Part shown: piece after piece, positions 848-14,337 of the stretch
Position numbering within the stretch: the first letter of the stretch is position 1
How the letters are laid out: every line of letters begins with the position of its first letter
Source of the DNA: an archaeon
GTDB taxonomy: Archaea > Undinarchaeota > CAZHTU01 > JBDRCC01
Assembly (NCBI GenBank): GCA_043822065.1
Contig: JBDRCC010000011.1
Span: 1 to 14,337, forward strand
Direction of reading: 5' to 3'
Length of the DNA stretch: 14,337 nucleotides
Position numbers and translations under genes: made by a program
Notes under the pieces: generated by a model
What the model saw: only the letters and a program-made list of their open reading frames with translations
Databases searched by the model: none
What the model was told of the DNA's origin: nothing

Positions 848-2086
848 CTACTCATACCTCAGCGCATCAACCGGCTTCAGCTTCGACGCCCTGTACGCAG
901 GCACCGCGCCGGCAATCATGCCTATGCTTATCGAAATCCCGAACGCAAAGGCAACCAGGTTCAGGGGAATTGCGGTCGTCAGCATCCCTCCCTGCCCCAT
1001 TATCCTTACGCCTATGGACGGCAGGGTATAGGATATGGCCGCCCCGAGGCTTATCCCGAGCACCCCCCCGACGACCCCCACCAGCGCTGCATTCAGCAGG
1101 AATATTACCGTTATGTCCCTGTTCTTCGCGCCAATCGCCTTCATTATCCCGATCTCCTTCGTCTTCTCAAGCACTGACGTGAACATGGTATTCGCAATCC
1201 CAACCGCCCCGACAATCAGCGACACCGCGGCTATTGCGCCAAGGAAAATGGTCATGGTGCTGGTTATCGCCGAGATGTTTTCCTGCATCACCTTTGCGGA
1301 TGTGATTGAGTAGTCCTTTTTCCGTTCGGTGACGTGCCTGGAAGCCATCAGCTTGCTGTCCGCGTCCGCTATTATCTGGTCGACGTATGACTCGTCCTCA
1401 GCCTTTAGCGTGATTGAGTTGTAGATGCCGTGGACTGCGTCCTCCAGGACGGTTTCCGCGGCGCTGATTGGCATTATTATGCTCCTGTCGTCCGTTCCCT
1501 CCGCCAGTATGCCTACTATCTTGAAGGGGCTGCCTTCGATGGTCAGCACCCGGTTCACCGCAAGCGGCTGCTTGAACGTGCTCTGTGCAAGCCTGTATCC
1601 TACAACGACTACATTGCTGTCGCCTGGCCCCAGGAGCCTGCCTGAGTCAAGCTCCGCTGTCGTGATGTACTTCCACACAGCAGGGTCCACCCCGGTCACC
1701 GACATGGTCGTTTTCTCTCCAAGATAGTATATCTCCGCCCTTCCGGAGATTGTCCCCTCTATGAACTTTACCCCACTGATGGAGCGGAGTACCTGGATGT
1801 CGCGGGTGGTGAGGTTTCCTCCGCTTGACGCCGCCTGGAAGCCTTCATCAAAATGCGCCTCCCTGAAGCCGCCCATCGCCCTGGAGCCGCCCGGGCTTAT
1901 CGTTATGATGTCAGCCCCAAGGCCGCCAAGCCTGCTCTCTATGCTCTGCTGCATCCCCTCGCCGATGGAAACTATCGCAACGACCGCGGCTACGCCTATG
2001 ACGATGCCGATTATCGTCAGCCAGCTGCGGAGCTTGCTGTGCAACAGGATGTTCGCTGCCAGCTTGACGGAAGTTGCGAATTTCAC
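848..2086 (-). CDS. ABC transporter permease, MacB/FtsX family
   Basis: N-terminal KLRSWLTIIGIVIGVAAVV, large extracytoplasmic domain, C-terminal GIANTMFTSVLEKTKEIGIMKAIGA and PAYRASKLKPVDALRYE; GTG start. Confidence 0.96.
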   Translation of the reverse strand: MKFATSVKLAANILLHSKLRSWLTIIGIVIGVAAVVAIVSIGEGMQQSIESRLGGLGADIITISPGGSRAMGGFREAHFDEGFQAASSGGNLTTRDIQVLRSISGVKFIEGTISGRAEIYYLGEKTTMSVTGVDPAVWKYITTAELDSGRLLGPGDSNVVVVGYRLAQSTFKQPLAVNRVLTIEGSPFKIVGILAEGTDDRSIIMPISAAETVLEDAVHGIYNSITLKAEDESYVDQIIADADSKLMASRHVTERKKDYSITSAKVMQENISAITSTMTIFLGAIAAVSLIVGAVGIANTMFTSVLEKTKEIGIMKAIGAKNRDITVIFLLNAALVGVVGGVLGISLGAAISYTLPSIGVRIMGQGGMLTTAIPLNLVAFAFGISISIGMIAGAVPAYRASKLKPVDALRYE

Positions 2087-2088
2087 TT

Positions 2089-3399
2089 TCAGGCCTTCTT
2101 CTTTTCCTTAGAGCACTTCAGGCAGGGCAAAAGCCTCTTTCCCTGCTTGTAGCACTTCTTGTACCAAACCGCGCCCGCAGCTAAGACCAAAAGGACAATT
2201 CCATACGTCCTCAGCTTGCTGCCGCCTGCCGTTCCTGCCCTCTGCGGCATGCCTGTCGCAGTGGCTGTGCCGTCGGTAATGCTCCTGAACTGGATTGGAA
2301 CCTCCTTCTCCACCGAATGCCTCTTCCCGGTGGTGTCGGTGTACTCCACAAGCACCTTCAGGTTTCCGCCGCCGGCCTGTGCGCCCCCCGCGCTCTGGGC
2401 GTCCTTCAGCTGTGCAGCGCGCTCTTCCCTGCTCATTGCAGAGAAGTCGCCCGACGCGAAGCCCTGCGCTATCTGGAATGAGACTATCGTGTAGTCGCCC
2501 CTGTCGAGGTTGCCCACTATCGAAGCCGTGCTCCCTGACACCCTGAAGCTAGGCTGGTCCGGCACCCTTACTGTCACGGAATACGCCGGGTTGTTCCCTG
2601 TGTTTGCGACCGAAAGCGAGGTCTGCCCGGACGAGCTTTCAGAGAACGTCACGTCAAAGTCGGTCTCGCCGCCGACGAATATCCCAGCTTTTGTGCTGAC
2701 CGCGGATGACGAGCCGGAGGAGCTCTCGAACGTCAGCGTCATGTCAAGCTGGTACAGCCCGGGGTTTGCGTCTATCCCTGCGACAACAATGTACTCTATC
2801 TCCGCCGTCTGGCCGGCGCCTATGTACTTGACGTACTTAGTATTATCCGAATACACCGGAAGTATCACCCCGTCAGCCTCCTCCCACGAGAACCTGACAT
2901 TTTGCATGGAGGATGAGCCCCTGTTCTCTATTGTGAACTTTAATGTGGTCTCCTGCCCTGGCTCGAGCTTGGACTTGTCAAGGGTTATGGCCTGCGAGTA
3001 CTTCGTGCTGCTTATGTCTATGTCAAAGCTTTTGGTTATCCCGCCATACGCCAGCTTCACCTTGTAAGTCCCCTGGACAGCGTCCTTGTCGACGAGGACC
3101 TTGAACTTCTGTATCGACGCAGAGAGCTCCTGCTGGTAAGCCGCCAATGTGTTTATCTGCCTGGAGTAGTCCTCCCCGGAGACCTCACTGAACGGGTACT
3201 CTGGGAGCAGCTCCACCGCCACGTTATTCAGCGTCGTGCTGCCGGTGTTCTCAATGCTGAACCTCAGCTCCACTATGTCGCCGGTGTCTGCCGGGTCAGG
3301 GCTCTGGCTCACGAACGACGCATCTACCGCCGCGGCATGGCCTAAAGCCGAAAACAGCACTACTACCAGCAGGCAGCCAACTAACAGGTTTGCTCTCAT
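2089..3399 (-). CDS. COG1361-like (S-layer/Ig-like domain) membrane-anchored protein associated with MacB-type ABC operons
   Basis: Signal peptide; repeated Ig-like segments (FSIENTG, FTIENRG, SVANTG..AYSVTV); C-terminal TM helix and basic tail; ATGA overlap with the ATPase gene. Confidence 0.85.
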   Translation of the reverse strand: MRANLLVGCLLVVVLFSALGHAAAVDASFVSQSPDPADTGDIVELRFSIENTGSTTLNNVAVELLPEYPFSEVSGEDYSRQINTLAAYQQELSASIQKFKVLVDKDAVQGTYKVKLAYGGITKSFDIDISSTKYSQAITLDKSKLEPGQETTLKFTIENRGSSSMQNVRFSWEEADGVILPVYSDNTKYVKYIGAGQTAEIEYIVVAGIDANPGLYQLDMTLTFESSSGSSSAVSTKAGIFVGGETDFDVTFSESSSGQTSLSVANTGNNPAYSVTVRVPDQPSFRVSGSTASIVGNLDRGDYTIVSFQIAQGFASGDFSAMSREERAAQLKDAQSAGGAQAGGGNLKVLVEYTDTTGKRHSVEKEVPIQFRSITDGTATATGMPQRAGTAGGSKLRTYGIVLLVLAAGAVWYKKCYKQGKRLLPCLKCSKEKKKA

Positions 3400-4103
3400 T
3401 CTTTTTTCCTCCTTCTTTTGTTCTGGGTTATCCGCTCCACCTGCCCGTCCTTGAGGTACACTATCCTTTCTGCATACTGCACAAGGTGCAGGTCGTGGGT
3501 GACTATGATGAGGGTCGTGCCCTTCTTTTTATGTATGTCCGACAGGAACTTCATTATGAACTCCCCGCTCTTGCTGTCCAGGTTCCCTGTCGGCTCGTCC
3601 GCGAGTATTATGTCCGGGTCAACCGAAAGCGCGCGGGCGATTGCAACCCTCTGCCTCTCCCCGCCAGAAAGCTGGGACGGCAGGTGGCGCATCCTGTCCC
3701 CGAGCCCGACCAGCGTGAGAAGCTCAGCCGACTTTTTCCTCGCCACCCCTGTGTCCACGTCCTGGATCTCAAGCGGCAGCATGACGTTCTCAAGGGCGGT
3801 AAGCGTCGGGATGAGGTTGAACTGCTGGAATATGAAGCCTATCTGCTTTCCCCGGGTCTGGGCAAGGTCTGACTCAGTCAGGCTTTCTATGTCCTTCCCT
3901 GCGAGGTATATCTTCCCCTTAGTCGGCAGGTCAAGGCACCCGACAAGGTTCATAACAGTGCTCTTCCCGCTCCCGCTCGGCCCGGCTATTGCAAGGAACT
4001 CCCCCTTCCTGACGTCGAGGCTTATCCCCCGTATGGCCGGGACTTCGACTTCCCCCATCTGGTAAACCTTCCAGGCATCATCTAGTTTTATTATCGGCTG
4101 CAT
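3396..4103 (-). CDS. ABC transporter ATP-binding protein, LolD/MacB-like
   Basis: Walker A GPSGSGKST, GFIFQQFNLIP, signature LSGGERQRVAIARAL, Walker B ILADEPTGNLD, H-loop VTHD. Confidence 0.97.
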   Translation of the reverse strand: MQPIIKLDDAWKVYQMGEVEVPAIRGISLDVRKGEFLAIAGPSGSGKSTVMNLVGCLDLPTKGKIYLAGKDIESLTESDLAQTRGKQIGFIFQQFNLIPTLTALENVMLPLEIQDVDTGVARKKSAELLTLVGLGDRMRHLPSQLSGGERQRVAIARALSVDPDIILADEPTGNLDSKSGEFIMKFLSDIHKKKGTTLIIVTHDLHLVQYAERIVYLKDGQVERITQNKRRRKKE

Positions 4104-4238: not shown

Positions 4239-4805
4239 ATGCCAAACATGACAAAGGAAAAGAACAGGAAGATAGTGCTCGGCATCGGCATAGTCGTCGC
4301 CTTTCTCCTGCTGCTCCTGGTTTTGAACTCCTACGTCGGCTACCGGGCGGCTGAGCGGAGGAACACGTGGCTTGAGGGGGAGATGCGGCAGAACCTTACA
4401 GCCGAGCAGTTCTCCCACTTTGAGGCAGGCAAGAGGATGGAGCGGCCGTCCCAGTTTACCTCCCTCTTTTTGCTCGTCCCGGCACTTCTTGGGGTCTTTG
4501 TCGGCGTCCTAGTCTACTATGTGACCTCAGAGAAGATTGTCGAAAAGGAGCACCAGATAGAGAAGAACACTAAGATAATACTCAACTTCCTCGGTCCGGA
4601 GGAGAAGAAGATAGTCCACACCCTGCTCGCGAACGGGGGCAGCATCAACCAGTACGAGCTCACCCGCCTCCCGGACCTGAACAAGGTAAAGACCCACAGG
4701 ATTCTCCAGAAGCTTGAGCAGAAAGGTGTAATTACGAAGCAGCACCTCGGCAAAATAAACAAGATAGCCCTCCACAAGGAATTGTACGAGGTCCTCAAGG
4801 ACTGA
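4239..4805 (+). CDS. Membrane-anchored transcriptional regulator with C-terminal MarR-like wHTH (COG2512-like)
   Basis: Two TM helices, then L.PEEKKIV..L..NGGSINQYELTRL..LNKVKTHRILQKLEQKGVI.K...GK.NKI. Start may be 4248. Confidence 0.88.
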   Translation: MPNMTKEKNRKIVLGIGIVVAFLLLLLVLNSYVGYRAAERRNTWLEGEMRQNLTAEQFSHFEAGKRMERPSQFTSLFLLVPALLGVFVGVLVYYVTSEKIVEKEHQIEKNTKIILNFLGPEEKKIVHTLLANGGSINQYELTRLPDLNKVKTHRILQKLEQKGVITKQHLGKINKIALHKELYEVLKD

Positions 4806-10051: not shown

Positions 10052-10109
10052 ACTATACAAATGTATGACGGATTTAAATGCCTTTCCAAGCCCAGCGGCT
10101 TAATGCCTG

Positions 10110-10150
10110 CGCCCACAACTTTTTGTGTGAGCCTTCGCCAATCCCAAACC
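10110..10150 (+). repeat. Degenerate copies of the CGCCAAAA/CCAAAA-NN-TTTTGG repeat family
   Basis: CCACAA-CT-TTTTGT (10113-10126) and CTTCGCCAATCCCAAACC, which resembles CTTCGCCAATTCCAAAACC at 11062. Confidence 0.45.
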
Positions 10151-10188
10151 TGAAAAGGCTTAAATATCCCACTGCCCAATACTAAAGC

Positions 10189-10473
10189 ATGCCAACCGCA
10201 TACACACTAATCAAGCTTACTTCCCCGGAGAAACAGGGGGACGTGGTCAAAAAGCTGCAGAAGCTGTCAAAGAAGCATGGCATGGGCATAGCCCAAATCG
10301 TGCCAATCGACCCCACCAAGTTCGTCTCCGCAGAAGGAATGGATTCGGAGAGCCCGGAGATAATTGTTACAGTAACACAGGACAAGCAAGACGACATCAC
10401 GGCAACAATAACAAAGATACGGTCTCTGGACGGCATAAAGACTACAAAGACCCTGCCCGTAGCAACACTTTAG
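10189..10473 (+). CDS. Stand-alone Lrp/AsnC C-terminal (RAM)-like domain protein
   Basis: AYTLIKL...DVVKKLQKL...EIIVTV...ITKIRSLDGIKTTKTL matches the fold's typical pattern; TATA CTTAAATA at 10160-10167. Confidence 0.75.
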   Translation: MPTAYTLIKLTSPEKQGDVVKKLQKLSKKHGMGIAQIVPIDPTKFVSAEGMDSESPEIIVTVTQDKQDDITATITKIRSLDGIKTTKTLPVATL

Positions 10474-10527
10474 CCAAGCGGCCCACCAAAACCGCCTGCA
10501 CAGGCCAATTTAGGGGCTATGTCAACT

Positions 10528-11025
10528 TCACCAGGCGTTCTTCTTCCCTATTGACCCTACATTTAGAAGGCCCAACTTAGCACTACGCGTGTCTGTTAGC
10601 CTTTCAGGCGGATTGTTAAGGATATACCTGTCGCCCATGTCCTCTAAGTGGGATGCCGGGCAGACAAACGCAATTACAAGCCGCTCTTTCCCCTTATTTA
10701 CAAGAGAATGCGCATACCTTTCCGGGACTATGAACACGTCATTTTCCTTTACTTTGACTGGAGCCTCCCAATTAGTTCTTATTACCTTCATGCCCTTCTT
10801 GACCTCCCCTATGTTCATCTCGCCTTCGCCAGAGAGGACATGATAGAACTCGTCGCCATTGAAATGCACATGCGCCTGAACCTGCTTTCCTATCTCAGCC
10901 ACGTGATACCCCATTGTCTGACCCTTAATGACGATGCCGTGTTTAATGGCAACAGCCGGATCCTCAAGGGCTTCCCTTAGAACCTCATCAATGTTTCGTA
11001 TTTCCATACTCCCTATTATCTGCAT
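10528..11025 (-). CDS. Cupin domain protein
   Basis: Cupin motif 1 HVHFNGDEFYHVLSGEG and motif 2 DVFIVPERYAHSLVNKG. Confidence 0.9.
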   Translation of the reverse strand: MQIIGSMEIRNIDEVLREALEDPAVAIKHGIVIKGQTMGYHVAEIGKQVQAHVHFNGDEFYHVLSGEGEMNIGEVKKGMKVIRTNWEAPVKVKENDVFIVPERYAHSLVNKGKERLVIAFVCPASHLEDMGDRYILNNPPERLTDTRSAKLGLLNVGSIGKKNAW

Positions 11026-11064
11026 TAAAGGACTTAAACTTAACTGTTCCTAAATGTGATGCTT

Positions 11065-11134
11065 CGCCAATTCCAAAACCCTTTTTCGCCCAAACTCTTT
11101 TTGCCGCGCCAAAAGATTTTAGTCGAAACTAAAA
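11065..11134 (+). repeat. 20-bp-period repeat cluster (CGCCAAAA family)
   Basis: Units start at 11065, 11087, 11107 and 11127 (spacing 22, 20, 20); 11109-11122 reads CCAAAA-GA-TTTTAG. Confidence 0.75.
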
Positions 11135-11167
11135 TACAGGATAGTGGCAAGCTACTCCTTCCCATGC

Positions 11168-11175
11168 TTTAAATA
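11168..11175 (+). promoter_or_regulatory. Archaeal TATA box (TTTAAATA) of the LAGLIDADG gene
   Basis: Ends 23 bp before ATG 11198, matching the spacing at other genes in the window. Confidence 0.6.
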
Positions 11176-11197
11176 GTTCTAAACCCGCCCGTATTTT

Positions 11198-11731
11198 ATG
11201 AAAGAAGAAATAGAAAACGAGATAGACCGAGCTTATGTTGCTGGATTTGCCATGGGCGAAGGCTGCTTTCACATAGGAATAACTAGCCGAAGGCGGGGTA
11301 AGAAATCGAGGTTACACTATACCGTTCGGCCAATTTTTGTCATAGTCCAGGCAGAGCAAGATTCAGCTGTTTTAAACTATGTTCAGAAGGTAATCGGGTT
11401 TGGAACAATACACCAGTCATCTCAACACAGGAACAGAAATGCAAACAATACCGTCCTCCTTATGATTAGTGGAGTTAAACGGTGCAAGGAATTAATACCG
11501 CTTTTTGACAAATACAAGCTTCACGGTCAAAAACAAGTAGATTATGACTTATGGAAAAACACCATAACTCTCATGGATAGCGGTGCGCACCTCACTGTCG
11601 AAGGGTTTCTAAAAATTGCAGAACTGCGAGACCAAATGAACCTGAGGGGGGTGCAAGGCAAACCAAACCCACGTTACCGGGATGTAACGTTTTTCAGAAA
11701 ATTTTTTAATGCAAACAAGTATACAAATTAA
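11198..11731 (+). CDS. Free-standing single-motif LAGLIDADG homing endonuclease family protein
   Basis: YVAGFAMGEGCFHI motif, FVIVQ, GFGTI, and the C-terminal KQVDY..WK...HLTVEGFLKI..LRDQMN typical of LAGLIDADG_1; AT-richer codon usage than flanking housekeeping genes. Confidence 0.92.
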   Translation: MKEEIENEIDRAYVAGFAMGEGCFHIGITSRRRGKKSRLHYTVRPIFVIVQAEQDSAVLNYVQKVIGFGTIHQSSQHRNRNANNTVLLMISGVKRCKELIPLFDKYKLHGQKQVDYDLWKNTITLMDSGAHLTVEGFLKIAELRDQMNLRGVQGKPNPRYRDVTFFRKFFNANKYTN

Positions 11732-11746
11732 CAAACCGTTTAACCA

Positions 11747-11766
11747 TGCCAAAATACTTTGGGCAT
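11747..11766 (+). repeat. CCAAAA-NN-TTTTGG family unit
   Basis: TGCCAAAA-TA-CTTTGGGCAT, ending 8 bp before the dif-like site. Confidence 0.7.
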
Positions 11767-11774
11767 TGAATACA

Positions 11775-11802
11775 AGGGCGCATAATACTGATTATGCGCC
11801 CA
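11775..11802. other. dif-like Xer recombination site (11-6-11)
   Basis: AGGGCGCATAA TACTGA TTATGCGCCCA has the GCATAA-N6-TTATG geometry of dif. The left arm matches the E. coli XerC arm GGTGCGCATAA at 9/11. Near-symmetric arms suit a single XerA. The sequence could alternatively act as an 11-bp hairpin. Confidence 0.65.
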
Positions 11803-11905
11803 TTTTCTCGATATAAGCCCCTTTTTCAGGCCCTCTCCGGGCTTTTTCCCCTATATTATCCCCTAAAAGGGCATGTGTGGGGGTTTTACCCTAACCTCTA
11901 ACTCT

Positions 11906-11962
11906 CGCCAAACCCTGCGCAACAAGCCCGCGCCAAAACTTTTTGGGCTTCGCCAAAACTCT
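11906..11962 (+). repeat. 20-bp-period repeat cluster (CGCCAAAA family)
   Basis: CGCCAAA at 11906, 11931 and 11951; 11933-11946 reads CCAAAA-CT-TTTTGG (perfect arms). Confidence 0.8.
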
Positions 11963-11969
11963 CTTTCTT

Positions 11970-12203
11970 CTACTGCGCTTCGCTCTTTATTCTGAAAATG
12001 ACCTTGGTCCCCTTGAGCGCCGTTGCGACCCGGTCGCTGAGCGCAAGGATGTCCTTGGTCGTTGGGACCTTTTCACCCCAGTTGTACTGGAAGTCGGAGT
12101 TCCCAAGCGAAACCGTGAAGCCAAGCGCGGACACCTTGTTCTTGACCTCTGACGGCATTATGCCGCCCTCTGAGTTGAAATATAATACCAGCCTAGTTTT
12201 CAC
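11970..12203 (-). CDS. Small hypothetical archaeal protein, 77 aa
   Basis: GTG start preceded by SD GAGGTG; alpha/beta pattern FNSEG..PSEV...LGF....G..DF.Y.W, which resembles uncharacterised small archaeal proteins (from memory, unverified). Confidence 0.8.
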   Translation of the reverse strand: MKTRLVLYFNSEGGIMPSEVKNKVSALGFTVSLGNSDFQYNWGEKVPTTKDILALSDRVATALKGTKVIFRIKSEAQ

Positions 12204-12263
12204 GTTGCCACCTCACACGTGCTAATACTAGCATATTTATAACAATTTTCAGCCGCCCCTTTT

Positions 12264-12323
12264 CGCCAACACTCTTTTAGCCACGCCAAAACATTTTGGG
12301 CATAACTAAAAGACTATGGGCGC
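12264..12323 (+). repeat. 20-bp-period repeat cluster (CGCCAAAA family)
   Basis: Units at 12264, 12284 and 12304; 12286-12299 reads CCAAAA-CA-TTTTGG and 12306-12319 reads CTAAAA-GA-CTATGG. Confidence 0.8.
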
Positions 12324-12336
12324 CAGAATATACTGC

Positions 12337-12618
12337 TTATTTCACGTCTTCTTCAGTTAAGTCTTTTAGATTGCTCTGGACGACACCATGCGGAAACCCC
12401 GGCATTGGAACCGTGCGCGCCGTACGGCACATATCGCATGACGCCTCAATCGTGACCTTTGTTATCTCACTTTTAACATGTTCCTGGACATATGCCATAA
12501 AATCAGCTTGAGCCGTCATTATCTTCTTATGGGTGCCGCCCTTGCACGCTTCCCCAAGTTCAAAGCAAGACTCGCAGCGCTCAATCAGCTCGTCTTTAAT
12601 TTTATTTTTTTCCGCCAT
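12337..12618 (-). CDS. Small hypothetical protein with two CxxC motifs (putative Zn-binding), 93 aa
   Basis: ATG at 12618 after purine-rich GAAAGGGGT; CESC and CDMC plus one extra Cys. The ORF-track start at 12669 falls inside a repeat. Confidence 0.7.
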   Translation of the reverse strand: MAEKNKIKDELIERCESCFELGEACKGGTHKKIMTAQADFMAYVQEHVKSEITKVTIEASCDMCRTARTVPMPGFPHGVVQSNLKDLTEEDVK

Positions 12619-12663
12619 ACCCCTTTCTTGGTCAGTCCAGTATATAATTATTCTCACTACCCA

Positions 12664-12703
12664 CGCCAAAACATTTTTAGCATAGCTAATACATTACGTA
12701 CGC
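12664..12703 (+). repeat. 20-bp-period repeat cluster (CGCCAAAA family)
   Basis: 12661-12691 matches 12281-12311 at 27/31 positions, including 17 consecutive bases (CCACGCCAAAACATTTT). Confidence 0.8.
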
Positions 12704-12709
12704 ACCCAA

Positions 12710-13222
12710 ATGGACGAAAAACCTTACGAAATAACCCGGGCTAAACCGCAAACAGGCAGCCTAGTCGCGGAGGCCGAGCTCATTGAGGCGGAAATGACCA
12801 TCCGCAAAATGCGGCTCCCGCCGGAGGCCAGGCTCACCCGGAAGGCGCTCATCCGCTGGGTCGCCCTCAGCCTCGGCCTGATAACCCCCGGCGAGTCGCG
12901 CGACACCATCCTCTCGATTCTTGACGCCCTCTTTTACTACAATTTCAGGGGGAAAAAGCCGACCACCCGCGACCTGAAGGACTACATCGACTCAAACTGG
13001 GAGGAAACCACCGAAAAGACCATCCGGTACCAGCTCGGGAAATTGAGGGAAACCGGCTTCCTGGAGAAATCTGAGAACACTTACACCTTTGTCAAGGACC
13101 CTGAAGCACCTGAACACGACCTAAAAGCCGGAATATTTTTGGCATTGGACAAACACTTTGGGCAGTCTAAAGGGCGCCTTTTGGAGGCGCTGACAAGCCT
13201 TCAGTCTCAGTATAGTATTTGA
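12710..13222 (+). CDS. Winged helix-turn-helix domain protein
   Basis: PTTRDLKDYI...TEKTIRYQLGKLRETGFLEK...YTF is a wHTH pattern; helical N-terminal region RWVALSLGLI.PGESR. Confidence 0.8.
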   Translation: MDEKPYEITRAKPQTGSLVAEAELIEAEMTIRKMRLPPEARLTRKALIRWVALSLGLITPGESRDTILSILDALFYYNFRGKKPTTRDLKDYIDSNWEETTEKTIRYQLGKLRETGFLEKSENTYTFVKDPEAPEHDLKAGIFLALDKHFGQSKGRLLEALTSLQSQYSI

Positions 13223-13652
13223 GGAACTTGCCCTCCTTCTTCGTTTTTACCATGCCAGCATCCACGAGGCGGTTTACCTGCTGGCTCACCCACGTCCTGC
13301 TCTTGCCCAGGGCCTTCGCCAGCTCGGCTGCGGTTATCGGGTGCTCGAGGTAGTCCAGTATCTTTCTTTGGAGCTCGGTCAGCTCTATCTCCTTTTCGAG
13401 CTTCTCCTTTTCCCCCCTAAGCCGCTCAATCTTCTCGCCGAGGGCGTCCCTGAGGTCGTCCCTCTTCGGCAGCAGGTCAAACTCGGTAAGTATCCTGTGG
13501 TGGTCGTCGTGCATCGCCCTCTTCAGGTCGTCGACGGCGAACCTGATTCCGAGGAGCTCCCTCATCATTGTTATGGCGACGTCCTCCTTCACTATGGTCG
13601 ACTCCTTCTGCTCCTCCTTCTTTTTCCTCTTTAACAGGGTGAAAAGTCCCAT
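13167..13652 (-). CDS. Coiled-coil plus C-terminal wHTH (ArsR/MarR-like) DNA-binding protein
   Basis: N-terminal MGLFTLLKRKKK, coiled coil LGEKIERLRGEKEKLEKEIE, then LTELQRKIL.YL..PITAAELAKALGKSRTWVSQQVNRLVDAGMV.TKKEGK..KY. ATG 13652 is preferred to 13673. Confidence 0.88.
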   Translation of the reverse strand: MGLFTLLKRKKKEEQKESTIVKEDVAITMMRELLGIRFAVDDLKRAMHDDHHRILTEFDLLPKRDDLRDALGEKIERLRGEKEKLEKEIELTELQRKILDYLEHPITAAELAKALGKSRTWVSQQVNRLVDAGMVKTKKEGKFLKYYTETEGLSAPPKGAL

Positions 13653-13655
13653 CTG

Positions 13656-13805
13656 CTTAACATATCTTAACACGTTACTTATATGTTAATTTTTCCTTTA
13701 CATGTTAATAACATGTTATCAACACGTACTTAACATGCACTTGACGTGTTAAGTATATCGAGACTTAGCTTGCCAGTACTCTCGGCACTGGCAGGACGCG
13801 TTAAG
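13656..13805. repeat. Cluster of TTAACAYGT boxes (left flank), overlapping the wHTH gene promoter
   Basis: Copies at 13656, 13666, 13681(rc), 13700(rc), 13709 (palindrome TAACATGTTA), 13719, 13729, 13744(rc) and 13796(rc). Confidence 0.8.
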
Positions 13806-13885
13806 CACGTATTGCTGCAGGATCCGCCCCCAATTATACTGGGTTATCCAAGCCAGGGTTTATCCGCATTTAAGCCGGACAGTTC

Positions 13886-14155
13886 CAATTGTGAGCTTAT
13901 GGGCCTGCCCAGGATAGCCAATAGGGCGCCATATCGAGGATTTTTCCGGAAAAAATTAGTACACCCTCAATTGTGAGAGTTAGAGGGGGTAATTCAGCCA
14001 GGCCTTTTGAGTGGGTGGAAAGCGAGATGTGAGGGTTGGGTCCAGAATAGGCAATTGTGAGAGCTTGGCCTGTGAGTGAACAAGGCCTAAAAATGGCGAA
14101 TGTGAGGATCCAGGCCAAAAACATGAATTGTGAGGGTAAGATACGCCTTTGTGAT
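13886..14155 (+). repeat. Co-oriented (CAAT)TGTGAG boxes (iteron-like)
   Basis: TGTGAG at 13890, 13972, 14028, 14056, 14071, 14101 and 14129 (plus TGTGAT at 14150); four copies read AATTGTGAG; all on the + strand. Confidence 0.8.
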
Positions 14156-14197
14156 ACCTGCCTTTTTTCCGCATATTAAACGGATTTAGACCATTTA

Positions 14198-14217
14198 CTT
14201 AACACGTCTTAACACGT
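14198..14217 (+). repeat. Tandem CTTAACACGT x2 (right flank)
   Basis: Two exact adjacent 10-mers, identical to 13666-13675. Confidence 0.8.
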
Positions 14218-14227
14218 TCACTTTTCG

Positions 14228-14337
14228 TCAGACGCGTTCACTCAGGATAGCGCAAATCGCCAGAAGGATTATCAGATAAATCACGTTAAACCCGGTTTCA
14301 ACCGCAATCAGGAGGTAGCTTATCCCCAGCGCATAGA
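14228..14337 (-). CDS. C-terminus of a membrane protein (partial, runs off the window)
   Basis: Open hydrophobic frame ...YALGISYLLIAVETGFNVIYLIILLAICAILSERV* with TGA at 14228-14230; not in the ORF track. Confidence 0.65.
   Translation of the reverse strand, partial: YALGISYLLIAVETGFNVIYLIILLAICAILSERV

Follow-up and report, generated by a model that had tools for sequence, protein, structure and literature searches.

Winged-helix proteins, clustered repeats and a dif-like palindrome at one locus of an Undinarchaeota genome

Introduction

Do the DNA-binding proteins and repeats that crowd a few kilobases of an archaeal chromosome form one system, or are they neighbours with separate roles? 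The question is raised by contig JBDRCC010000011.1 of an Undinarchaeota genome, in which a dif-like palindrome, three families of short repeats, a LAGLIDADG endonuclease gene and two genes encoding winged helix-turn-helix (wHTH) proteins occur within about 4 kb. A preliminary description took these parts for a single DNA-organising locus centred on a dif site. The window analysed here is the entire contig (C11; 14,337 bp), which belongs to a 1.03-Mb assembly of 22 contigs that is 82% complete (G000). Two relatives of the same order, G001 and G002, are 79% and 72% complete, respectively.

The features exist and are concentrated locally far beyond chance, and the three predicted DNA-binding proteins (a PF00961 LAGLIDADG protein and two winged-helix proteins) are indeed encoded there, but they do not make up one dif-centred system. 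On balance, the locus probably comprises two separate wHTH/operator modules lying beside foreign genes and a terminator hairpin. One module pairs the 170-residue protein P0001 with motif A (CGCCAAAAC..TTTTGG). The other pairs a coiled-coil wHTH protein with TGTGAG arrays and CTTAACAYGTT iterons. We infer both the protein-box pairings and their regulatory outcome from comparisons of sequences.

Results

A winged-helix protein preceded by a recurrent palindrome

P0001 matches no Pfam family and no NCBIfam model. In profile searches against PDB sequences, it matches BlaI (E 2e-4) and MecI (E 1.4e-3). The AlphaFold2 (AF2) model features a winged-helix core, with a mean predicted local distance difference test (pLDDT) score of 75 and Foldseek E values of 0.02-0.1. 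The fold is predicted, with moderate confidence, to be a BlaI/PadR/MarR-like winged helix. Members of the P0001 family (alignment A2; 146-195 residues) occur in 63 species-representative genomes, mostly of Micrarchaeota and Iainarchaeota, and 63 homologue loci from other DPANN genomes (L035-L097) were compared.

In 11 of the 63 DPANN loci, the P0001 homologue is preceded, within 135 bp, by a perfect palindrome of the form xyAAAA-N2-3-TTTTy'x'; of 979 upstream regions of control open reading frames (ORFs), 15 contain one. Expressed as density, 12 sites occur in the 8,505 bp preceding P0001 homologues versus 14 in the other 598 kb, a difference of approximately 60-fold. For instance, CCAAAACTCTTTTGG and GGAAAAAGAGTTTTTCC lie upstream of P0001 homologues. 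The sequence CCAAAAGATTTTGG spans the start codon of the homologue in G001, and TTCCAAAACATTCTTGG is located upstream of the homologue in G002, where more copies are present in the next intergenic gap. In the window, CACGCCAAAACATTTTTAGC is located 26-48 nt 5' of the P0001 ATG. Since the palindrome is recurrent before P0001 homologues, it may represent the phylogenetic footprint of an autoregulatory operator, and motif A is best read as the operator of P0001. The protein would repress or tune its own gene via CGCCAAAAC-N-TTTTGG(C) sites and, in G000, might also act on a few adjacent, partly foreign small genes with duplicated intergenic sites.

Motif A is strongly clustered. Four of the five copies of GCCAAAANNTTTT in the assembly fall at 11108-12665, and CGCCMAA occurs seven times on the + strand and never on the - strand of 10100-12720 (0.40 expected per strand, P 2e-7). 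A 59-nt motif-A module is duplicated in G000 at 81% identity. The preliminary description had reported phased palindromic repeats in nearly every intergenic gap. The distribution is largely as reported, as the strict motif is present in four of six gaps and a relaxed form, TTCGCCAA, in a fifth. Regular phasing of the motif-A family was not found, however, as Tandem Repeats Finder reports nothing there, and no more than about four of the copies form palindromes. The orientation is the same in all copies whatever the direction of the genes, which is unexpected for promoter elements and weighs against the operator assignment. Repeat arrays beside P0001 homologues were not found outside the order, among 61 loci.

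A coiled-coil winged-helix protein conserved in Undinarchaeota

The protein encoded at 13167-13652 matches the Pfam winged-helix families HTH_24, HTH_20, HTH_5 and MarR_2. Profile searches against PDB retrieved 2oqg (E 5e-7) and the archaeal protein AspA (E 1e-4), and Foldseek retrieved SmtB, CzrA and HlyU. The NCBIfam model HTH_metalloreg scores 36.8 bits, under its cut-off of 55 bits. A protein atlas returned winged-helix clusters of a generic kind only. In the AF2 model (mean pLDDT 81), two long helices (residues 25-60 and 64-101) precede the wHTH domain; the predicted fold is a helical hairpin followed by an ArsR/SmtB-like wHTH.

Proteins of this family (A1) carry a basic MGLF..LLKKKKK tail before the coiled coil, and a low-complexity linker as well. 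Within the motif MHDDHHRIL, D50 and H51 are invariant and H52 is nearly so. These residues are located inside the helical hairpin and not at a known ArsR site; the invariant Asp and His together may bind metal. A1 proteins are present in 15 of 16 other genomes of the phylum; in G003 the match covers the wHTH only. Outside Undinarchaeota, all matches are confined to the wHTH part.

TGTGAG arrays and CTTAACAYGTT iterons

The coiled-coil wHTH gene is separated from a gene of the PF01901 family by a 575-bp non-coding stretch (13653-14228). The two repeat motifs reported for this stretch in the preliminary description are both there. TGTGAG occurs seven times in 240 bp, always on the + strand, and this is the only assembly cluster of at least four copies per 300 bp (approximately 3e-7 expected). 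The hexamer is otherwise rare in the genome (191 copies observed versus 496 expected; rank 7 of 60 hexamers of the same composition), and three of the nine extended boxes in the assembly are found in the array. As to the second motif, six of the 11 assembly copies of TTAACAYGT are located in C11. Four of the eight copies of AATTGTGAG are found there as well. In the window, Tandem Repeats Finder detected only two short tandems of the TTAACAYGT family, with a 10-11-bp unit, at 13700-13724 and 14198-14217. Counted across the genome, the motifs are thus concentrated at the locus.

The association of TGTGAG boxes with the coiled-coil wHTH gene extends across the phylum. Of 15 Undinarchaeota loci, 13 have at least three boxes upstream of this gene, always antisense to it; the remaining two, with just two boxes each, belong to a single genus. 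The consensus of 116 boxes is wwTGTGAGAGTT. Nine of the 15 loci have a second, inverted array of 4-7 boxes at a distance of 2-2.5 kb, which precedes the gene of a small wHTH protein (family A4; 11 loci), so that each of the two outer genes has the same relative array orientation. Between these genes lies a PadR-like gene (family A3; 12 loci; 170-197 residues), which is convergent with the coiled-coil gene and, in other families, takes the position of P0001. A relationship between the A3 and P0001 families is unsupported (hhalign probability 0.2).

The iterons are positioned at the promoter. In the window, CTTAACAYGTT boxes flank the TATA-like sequence ATATAAGT, located 26-33 nt before the coiled-coil wHTH ATG, which makes promoter occlusion the simplest putative mechanism. 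The CTTAACAYGTT iterons are an addition of this order; other families feature CTTACAT palindromes or direct repeats, related to CTTAACAYG, near the start of the coiled-coil gene. In G001, a non-coding region of about 600 bp is dense with TTAACAYGTTAA palindromes, followed by TGTGAG boxes, and a non-coding region with both elements, followed by a PF01901 gene, is common to the syntenic loci of G001 and G002. Past this region, G001 shares its gene order with the contig that continues the window (C20): two PF01901 genes with a TrmB-like gene between them. TTAACRYG half-sites are similarly clustered, 11 of the 48 in G000 falling within 3 kb around the array and 25 occurring within 1.3 kb in G002. 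The 3.9-kb contig of L036, titled with a bacterial genus, carries an archaeal wHTH pair and an iteron array; a binning or labelling error is probable.

The arrays are most likely autoregulatory operator arrays. The coiled-coil wHTH protein, the promoter-overlapping CTTAACAYGTT boxes and the wwTGTGAGAGTT array would form a self-contained module that at least autoregulates, and this module is the part of the locus that is conserved across Undinarchaeota. Binding of the local repeats by the local proteins, as initially proposed, is very probable in light of the comparative footprints, which link P0001 to motif A and the coiled-coil wHTH protein to TGTGAG and TTAACAYGT.

Box orientation, which is uniform in each array and conserved relative to the flanking gene, would also suit a non-coding RNA with repeated UGUGAG motifs, such as a protein-sponge RNA, and a T-run follows the array at 14160-14175. 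Such an RNA is highly improbable. No family was found when the whole window was searched against Rfam at gathering thresholds, and folding of 13870-14180 was no better than that of shuffled sequences on either strand (z -0.21 and -0.03), so that a structured RNA is unsupported. The stretches that separate the boxes are not conserved from one family to the next.

Operator arrays or a chromosomal landmark

Several observations fit poorly with simple operators. Because TGTGAG is depleted and extended boxes are few, no dispersed regulon is evident, whereas a plain transcription factor would be expected to have one. The arrays hold seven to ten boxes of one direction over 250-600 bp, far more than the usual archaeal autoregulatory operator contains. 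In G001, 30 TTAACRYG half-sites are spread over 4 kb, into four neighbouring genes, and in G002 the half-sites form tandems with periods of 11 bp (7 and 3.3 copies) and 21 bp (3.5 copies). Such spread and periodicity look like those of a higher-order nucleoprotein site.

These observations would be accounted for if a complex of the coiled-coil wHTH protein on the arrays marked, anchored or segregated origin-proximal DNA, much as AspA, ParR or TubR do on their centromeres, autoregulation being a by-product. There is one array cluster per genome and the hexamer is avoided elsewhere; inverted arrays flank a cluster of three wHTH genes in nine of 15 loci; orc1 is 13-22 kb away in each of the eight relatives that have both on one contig; and the iterons of G002 are periodic, while the sites of G001 reach into coding DNA. 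The wHTH profile matches AspA, and the basic tail (MGLF..KKKK) precedes the coiled coil. Against this, no ParA-, ParM- or TubZ-type NTPase was found among the Pfam-annotated genes of the window and C20:1-12000, to which the search was confined, and an ABC-transporter subunit is the sole ATPase found there. The AspA match covers the generic ArsR-type wHTH only, proximity to the origin could reflect inherited synteny, and both arrays lie upstream of the two outermost genes, as is the case with operators. Box spacing peaks at 10.6 bp (nominal p 0.005-0.007; one genome per family, 46 spacings), as helical phasing would predict, but 273 of 2000 jittered sets equal this peak when periods of 7-16 bp are scanned, and the phasing is not significant.

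We regard it as unlikely that Undinarchaeota carry a single origin-proximal landmark in which wwTGTGAGAGTT arrays, often two and inverted, and lineage-specific 11-bp iterons are coated by a dedicated coiled-coil wHTH protein. It is similarly doubtful that such a landmark, with no ParA-type motor next to it, would function as an anchor or centromere through a protein whose basic tail may bind membranes. Autoregulatory operator arrays are the preferred explanation.

The palindrome as a probable terminator

The palindrome GGGCGCATAAT-ACTG-ATTATGCGCCC, the centre of the system proposed in the preliminary description, is found 45 nt past the stop codon of the LAGLIDADG gene, between this gene and the convergent gene for a 77-residue protein. 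It has perfect 11-bp arms and a 4-bp loop or, read otherwise, arms matching at 10 of 11 positions and a 6-bp spacer. The 9+4+9 core is present in a single copy in the assembly. As a hairpin, the palindrome forms a stem of 11 pairs, six of which are G-C, with a 4-nt loop and T-rich tails on both strands. A terminator scan found six such sites versus 3.8 expected from shuffled sequences, so the class is weakly specific. A two-way terminator hairpin serving the convergent LAGLIDADG and 77-aa genes is, on these features, the best-supported reading.

Archaeal dif sites are unique, intergenic and composed of inverted arms around a spacer, according to PMC2958812. A chromosomal dif site acted upon by XerA, with repeats and DNA-binding proteins organising or licensing dimer resolution, would account for the exact dif geometry of the palindrome, which is unique and intergenic and whose 10/11 arms and 6-bp spacer fit those criteria. 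The comparison with published archaeal dif sites was made on these criteria only. A single XerA-like gene is present in G000 (C10:3552-4400), and such genes occur in all three genomes of the order and in one of eight searched genomes of other families. The one in G001 is separated from the wHTH pair by 2.4 kb. In G002, a site that matches the arms at 16 of 22 positions precedes the P0001 orthologue by about 270 bp; by our own arithmetic, the chance of such a match in 3.9 kb is about 0.02. The dif geometry, the neighbouring xerA-like gene of G001 and the G002 match all weigh against a plain terminator. The palindrome may also resemble the bacterial XerC arm.

Even so, we consider a dif site at this position very unlikely. 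No copy with up to three mismatches was detected in the incomplete assemblies of G001 and G002. At the 14-kb syntenic locus of G001, the closest match to the arms (15 of 22 positions) lacks the core, and the arms of the G002 site are poorly symmetric. The palindrome scores as a two-way terminator, the polarity of motif A is unchanged across it, and its neighbouring genes are non-syntenic and partly foreign. The conserved core of the locus is present in families in which no Xer gene was found. Finally, GC skew is uniform at about -0.1, without a switch, and the core is origin-proximal, as detailed below. No dif-like palindrome was found beside xerA on C10. A loose dif pattern, GCATAA-N6-TTATGC with up to two mismatches, was rejected as too unspecific; it matched 44, 30 and 43 sites per strand in G000, G001 and G002, compared with 37, 18 and 9 for a control, and served only to flag the G002 site.

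Position relative to orc1 and GC skew

GC skew ranges from -0.10 to -0.14 in every 5-kb bin from C11 into C20, the sign being constant over about 75 kb, and does not change at 10-15 kb of C11. The skew being uniform, the locus is neither a skew-defined origin nor a skew-defined terminus and does not lie at a skew switch; for the terminus, the test is not decisive in archaea with several origins. Skew is strong and uniform in most contigs of G000 (means of ±0.08-0.12, over up to 119 kb), and only C7, C17, C2, C4 and C18 are mixed.

The orc1 gene (PF09079) provides a second landmark. Its distance from the coiled-coil gene, 13-22 kb, was obtained in eight relatives from four families; a further three have them on separate contigs. 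The core of the locus is therefore origin-proximal rather than located at the terminus. In G000, orc1 maps to C21:24084-25190, with a very short upstream gap and uniformly negative skew; as no switch occurs there, the origin of G000 either does not lie beside orc1 or is unassembled. Scaffolding by contig-end overlaps joined C11 to C20 and gave no link from C11 to the orc1 contig. In contig C2 of G008, the skew changes sign at orc1 and not at the coiled-coil locus. In both G012 and G008 an AT-rich gap precedes orc1, with boxes that we take to be similar to the origin recognition box (ORB), judged by eye against the consensus.

One-directional repeats, an AT-rich segment and promoter inverted repeats recall iteron replicons, and the motif is unique in the genome. 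Under this explanation, the locus would be a second origin in which the wHTH protein is the initiator, TGTGAG boxes are the iterons, promoter palindromes mediate autorepression and the AT-rich region 13650-13760 is unwound. We consider a second origin very unlikely too. Skew does not switch at the locus in G000, nor in G008, in which the switch occurs at orc1; ORB-like boxes and an AT-rich stretch are found beside orc1 in G012 and G008; and the protein matches no replication-initiator family.

A variable zone beside the winged-helix pair

When the 19 proteins of the window were searched by tblastn against the loci of five relatives, only P0001 and the coiled-coil wHTH protein were matched. They form the same convergent pair in G001 and G002, with identities of 76% and 58% for P0001 and 55% and 46% for the coiled-coil wHTH protein. 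Their genes overlap at the 3' ends by 56 bp in the window and by 23 bp in G001. The LAGLIDADG, 77-aa, 93-aa, 94-aa and cupin genes have no counterpart at the syntenic loci of G001 and G002. Synteny thus holds for the wHTH pair and the motifs, but not for the 77-aa gene and the palindrome, and the suspicion voiced initially that some parts are unrelated neighbours is correct for these five genes.

GC content at third codon positions (GC3) is 0.42 in the LAGLIDADG gene, 0.51 in the 93-aa gene and 0.54 in the cupin gene, versus 0.70-0.78 in neighbouring core genes. The LAGLIDADG gene is compositionally foreign. It encodes a protein of 177 residues with one PF00961 (LAGLIDADG_1) domain at residues 15-122 (E 2.8e-19) and is probably a recently acquired selfish gene. 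As the genes to the left of the wHTH pair differ among G000, G001 and G002 and are of mixed composition, the left part is a variable zone, not a conserved system.

In G001, six small genes (65-158 residues) without a match in G000 lie between the XerA-like recombinase gene (L009 2-559) and the wHTH pair, so that the DNA flanking the pair varies from genome to genome. A short motif, TAGCTTGCCAGTA, occurs at 13766-13778, in the non-coding stretch, and inverted at 11142-11154, 5' of the LAGLIDADG gene. Its variant CTTGCCAGTAAT is found twice upstream of the pair in G001 (L009 2817-2860). The 9-mer of this motif is not rare in G000 (13 copies).

The coordinates of all features are listed in Table 1. 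The last 141 nt of C11 (14197-14337) are identical to the start of C20 (C20:1-141), and the locus therefore runs on into C20. The break falls within the CTTAACACGT tandem, one possible cause being copy-number or strain variation, and the assembly graph therefore probably branches at the iterons. Farther to the left, an operon at 848-4103 encodes a MacB/FtsX-type ABC transporter (FtsX permease, CARDB/NEW3-domain protein and ABC ATPase), and a winged-helix gene of the DUF7343 type occupies 4239-4805. Both look ordinary and contain none of the motifs, and the left 10 kb are, as first described, free of arrays of these motifs. A tRNA scan of the window found none.

Table 1. Coordinates of repeats, genes and other features in the right part of the window
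Feature	Position	Strand	Basis
Relaxed motif-A half-site TTCGCCAA..CCAAAC, 5' of the 94-aa gene	10134..10150	+	sequence
94-aa protein; weak, below-cut-off similarity to NapD / Lrp-type C-terminal domain; not syntenic	10189..10473	+	
Cupin-domain protein, 165 aa; GC3 0.54; not syntenic	10528..11025	-	
Motif-A module, 3-4 boxes; 81% identity over 59 nt with 12256-12314	11055..11137	+	
LAGLIDADG endonuclease gene; free-standing, single-domain, single copy; GC3 0.42	11198..11731	+	
Motif-A palindrome ATGCCAAAATACTTTGGGCAT	11746..11767	+	
Perfect palindrome, 11-bp arms; dif-like geometry and two-way terminator-like hairpin	11776..11801	no strand	
Three motif-A boxes, one palindromic (11929-11947)	11905..11965	+	
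77-aa protein; no family match; not syntenic	11970..12203	-	
Motif-A module 5' of the promoter of the 77-aa gene; palindrome at 12282-12302	12256..12314	+	
93-aa Cys-rich protein, ATG at 12618; no family match; not syntenic	12337..12618	-	
Motif-A box, 26-48 nt before the ATG of the 170-aa gene; putative autoregulatory operator	12662..12684	+	
170-aa winged-helix protein P0001 (A2 family)	12710..13222	+	
161-aa coiled-coil and ArsR-like winged-helix protein (A1 family; 168/161 aa)	13167..13652	-	
AT-rich CTTAACAYGTT boxes and palindromes overlapping the coiled-coil wHTH promoter	13656..13805	no strand	
Array of seven unidirectional wwTGTGAGrg boxes	13888..14138	+	
Tandem CTTAACACGT, two copies; end of the non-coding region, C20 begins here	14198..14218	+	
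PF01901 (O_anti_polymase) membrane-protein gene, 3' end; rest on C20	14229..14337	-	

Discussion

Four kinds of known systems share features with this locus. Like autoregulated repressors of the ArsR/SmtB group, the coiled-coil wHTH protein has a wHTH domain, by both profile and predicted fold, and palindromic boxes over its own TATA box and start. Unlike in these repressors, a basic tail and a helical hairpin of 75 residues precede the wHTH, the family model scores below its cut-off, and 7-10 one-directional boxes plus iterons, with no dispersed regulon, replace one or two operators.

Centromere-binding proteins offer the second comparison. AspA of pNOB8, ParR-parC and TubR-tubC function in plasmid partition. 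As in these systems, a small dimer-type binder is encoded beside arrays that include its own promoter, the iterons of G002 have an 11-bp unit, and AspA is among the profile matches in PDB. In contrast, the locus described here is chromosomal and conserved in the phylum, its box is unrelated, and no adjacent partition NTPase or adaptor was seen.

The archaeal Xer/dif system, with a 28-bp dif and XerA (PMC2958812), resembles the locus in two respects: the genome has a XerA-like gene, and the palindrome, with arms of 11 bp, is a single intergenic copy. The palindrome differs in not being conserved in genomes of the same order, in lacking a skew switch and in doubling as a terminator. Archaeal oriC regions likewise combine inverted repeat arrays with an AT-rich stretch. 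Here, however, the arrays lie 13-22 kb from orc1 in relatives, consist of wwTGTGAGAGTT boxes and show no skew switch, while orc1 itself has ORB-like boxes in two relatives.

Annotations of the locus should drop the dif label. Neither of the two protein families has a name, and little is known of chromosome organisation, segregation and regulation in DPANN archaea. Among the papers listed on Undinarchaeota replication origins and on TGTGAG repeats in archaea, we found no description of the array system. The locus yields three testable pairings: P0001 with CCAAAA-N-TTTTGG, which concerns 63 or more genomes of DPANN archaea, and the coiled-coil wHTH protein with TGTGAG and with CTTAACAYGTT. Should the arrays turn out to have a role beyond that of operators, this group would have its first candidate for a centromere-like element on the chromosome; otherwise, the arrays would be a clear case of an unusually large autoregulatory array.

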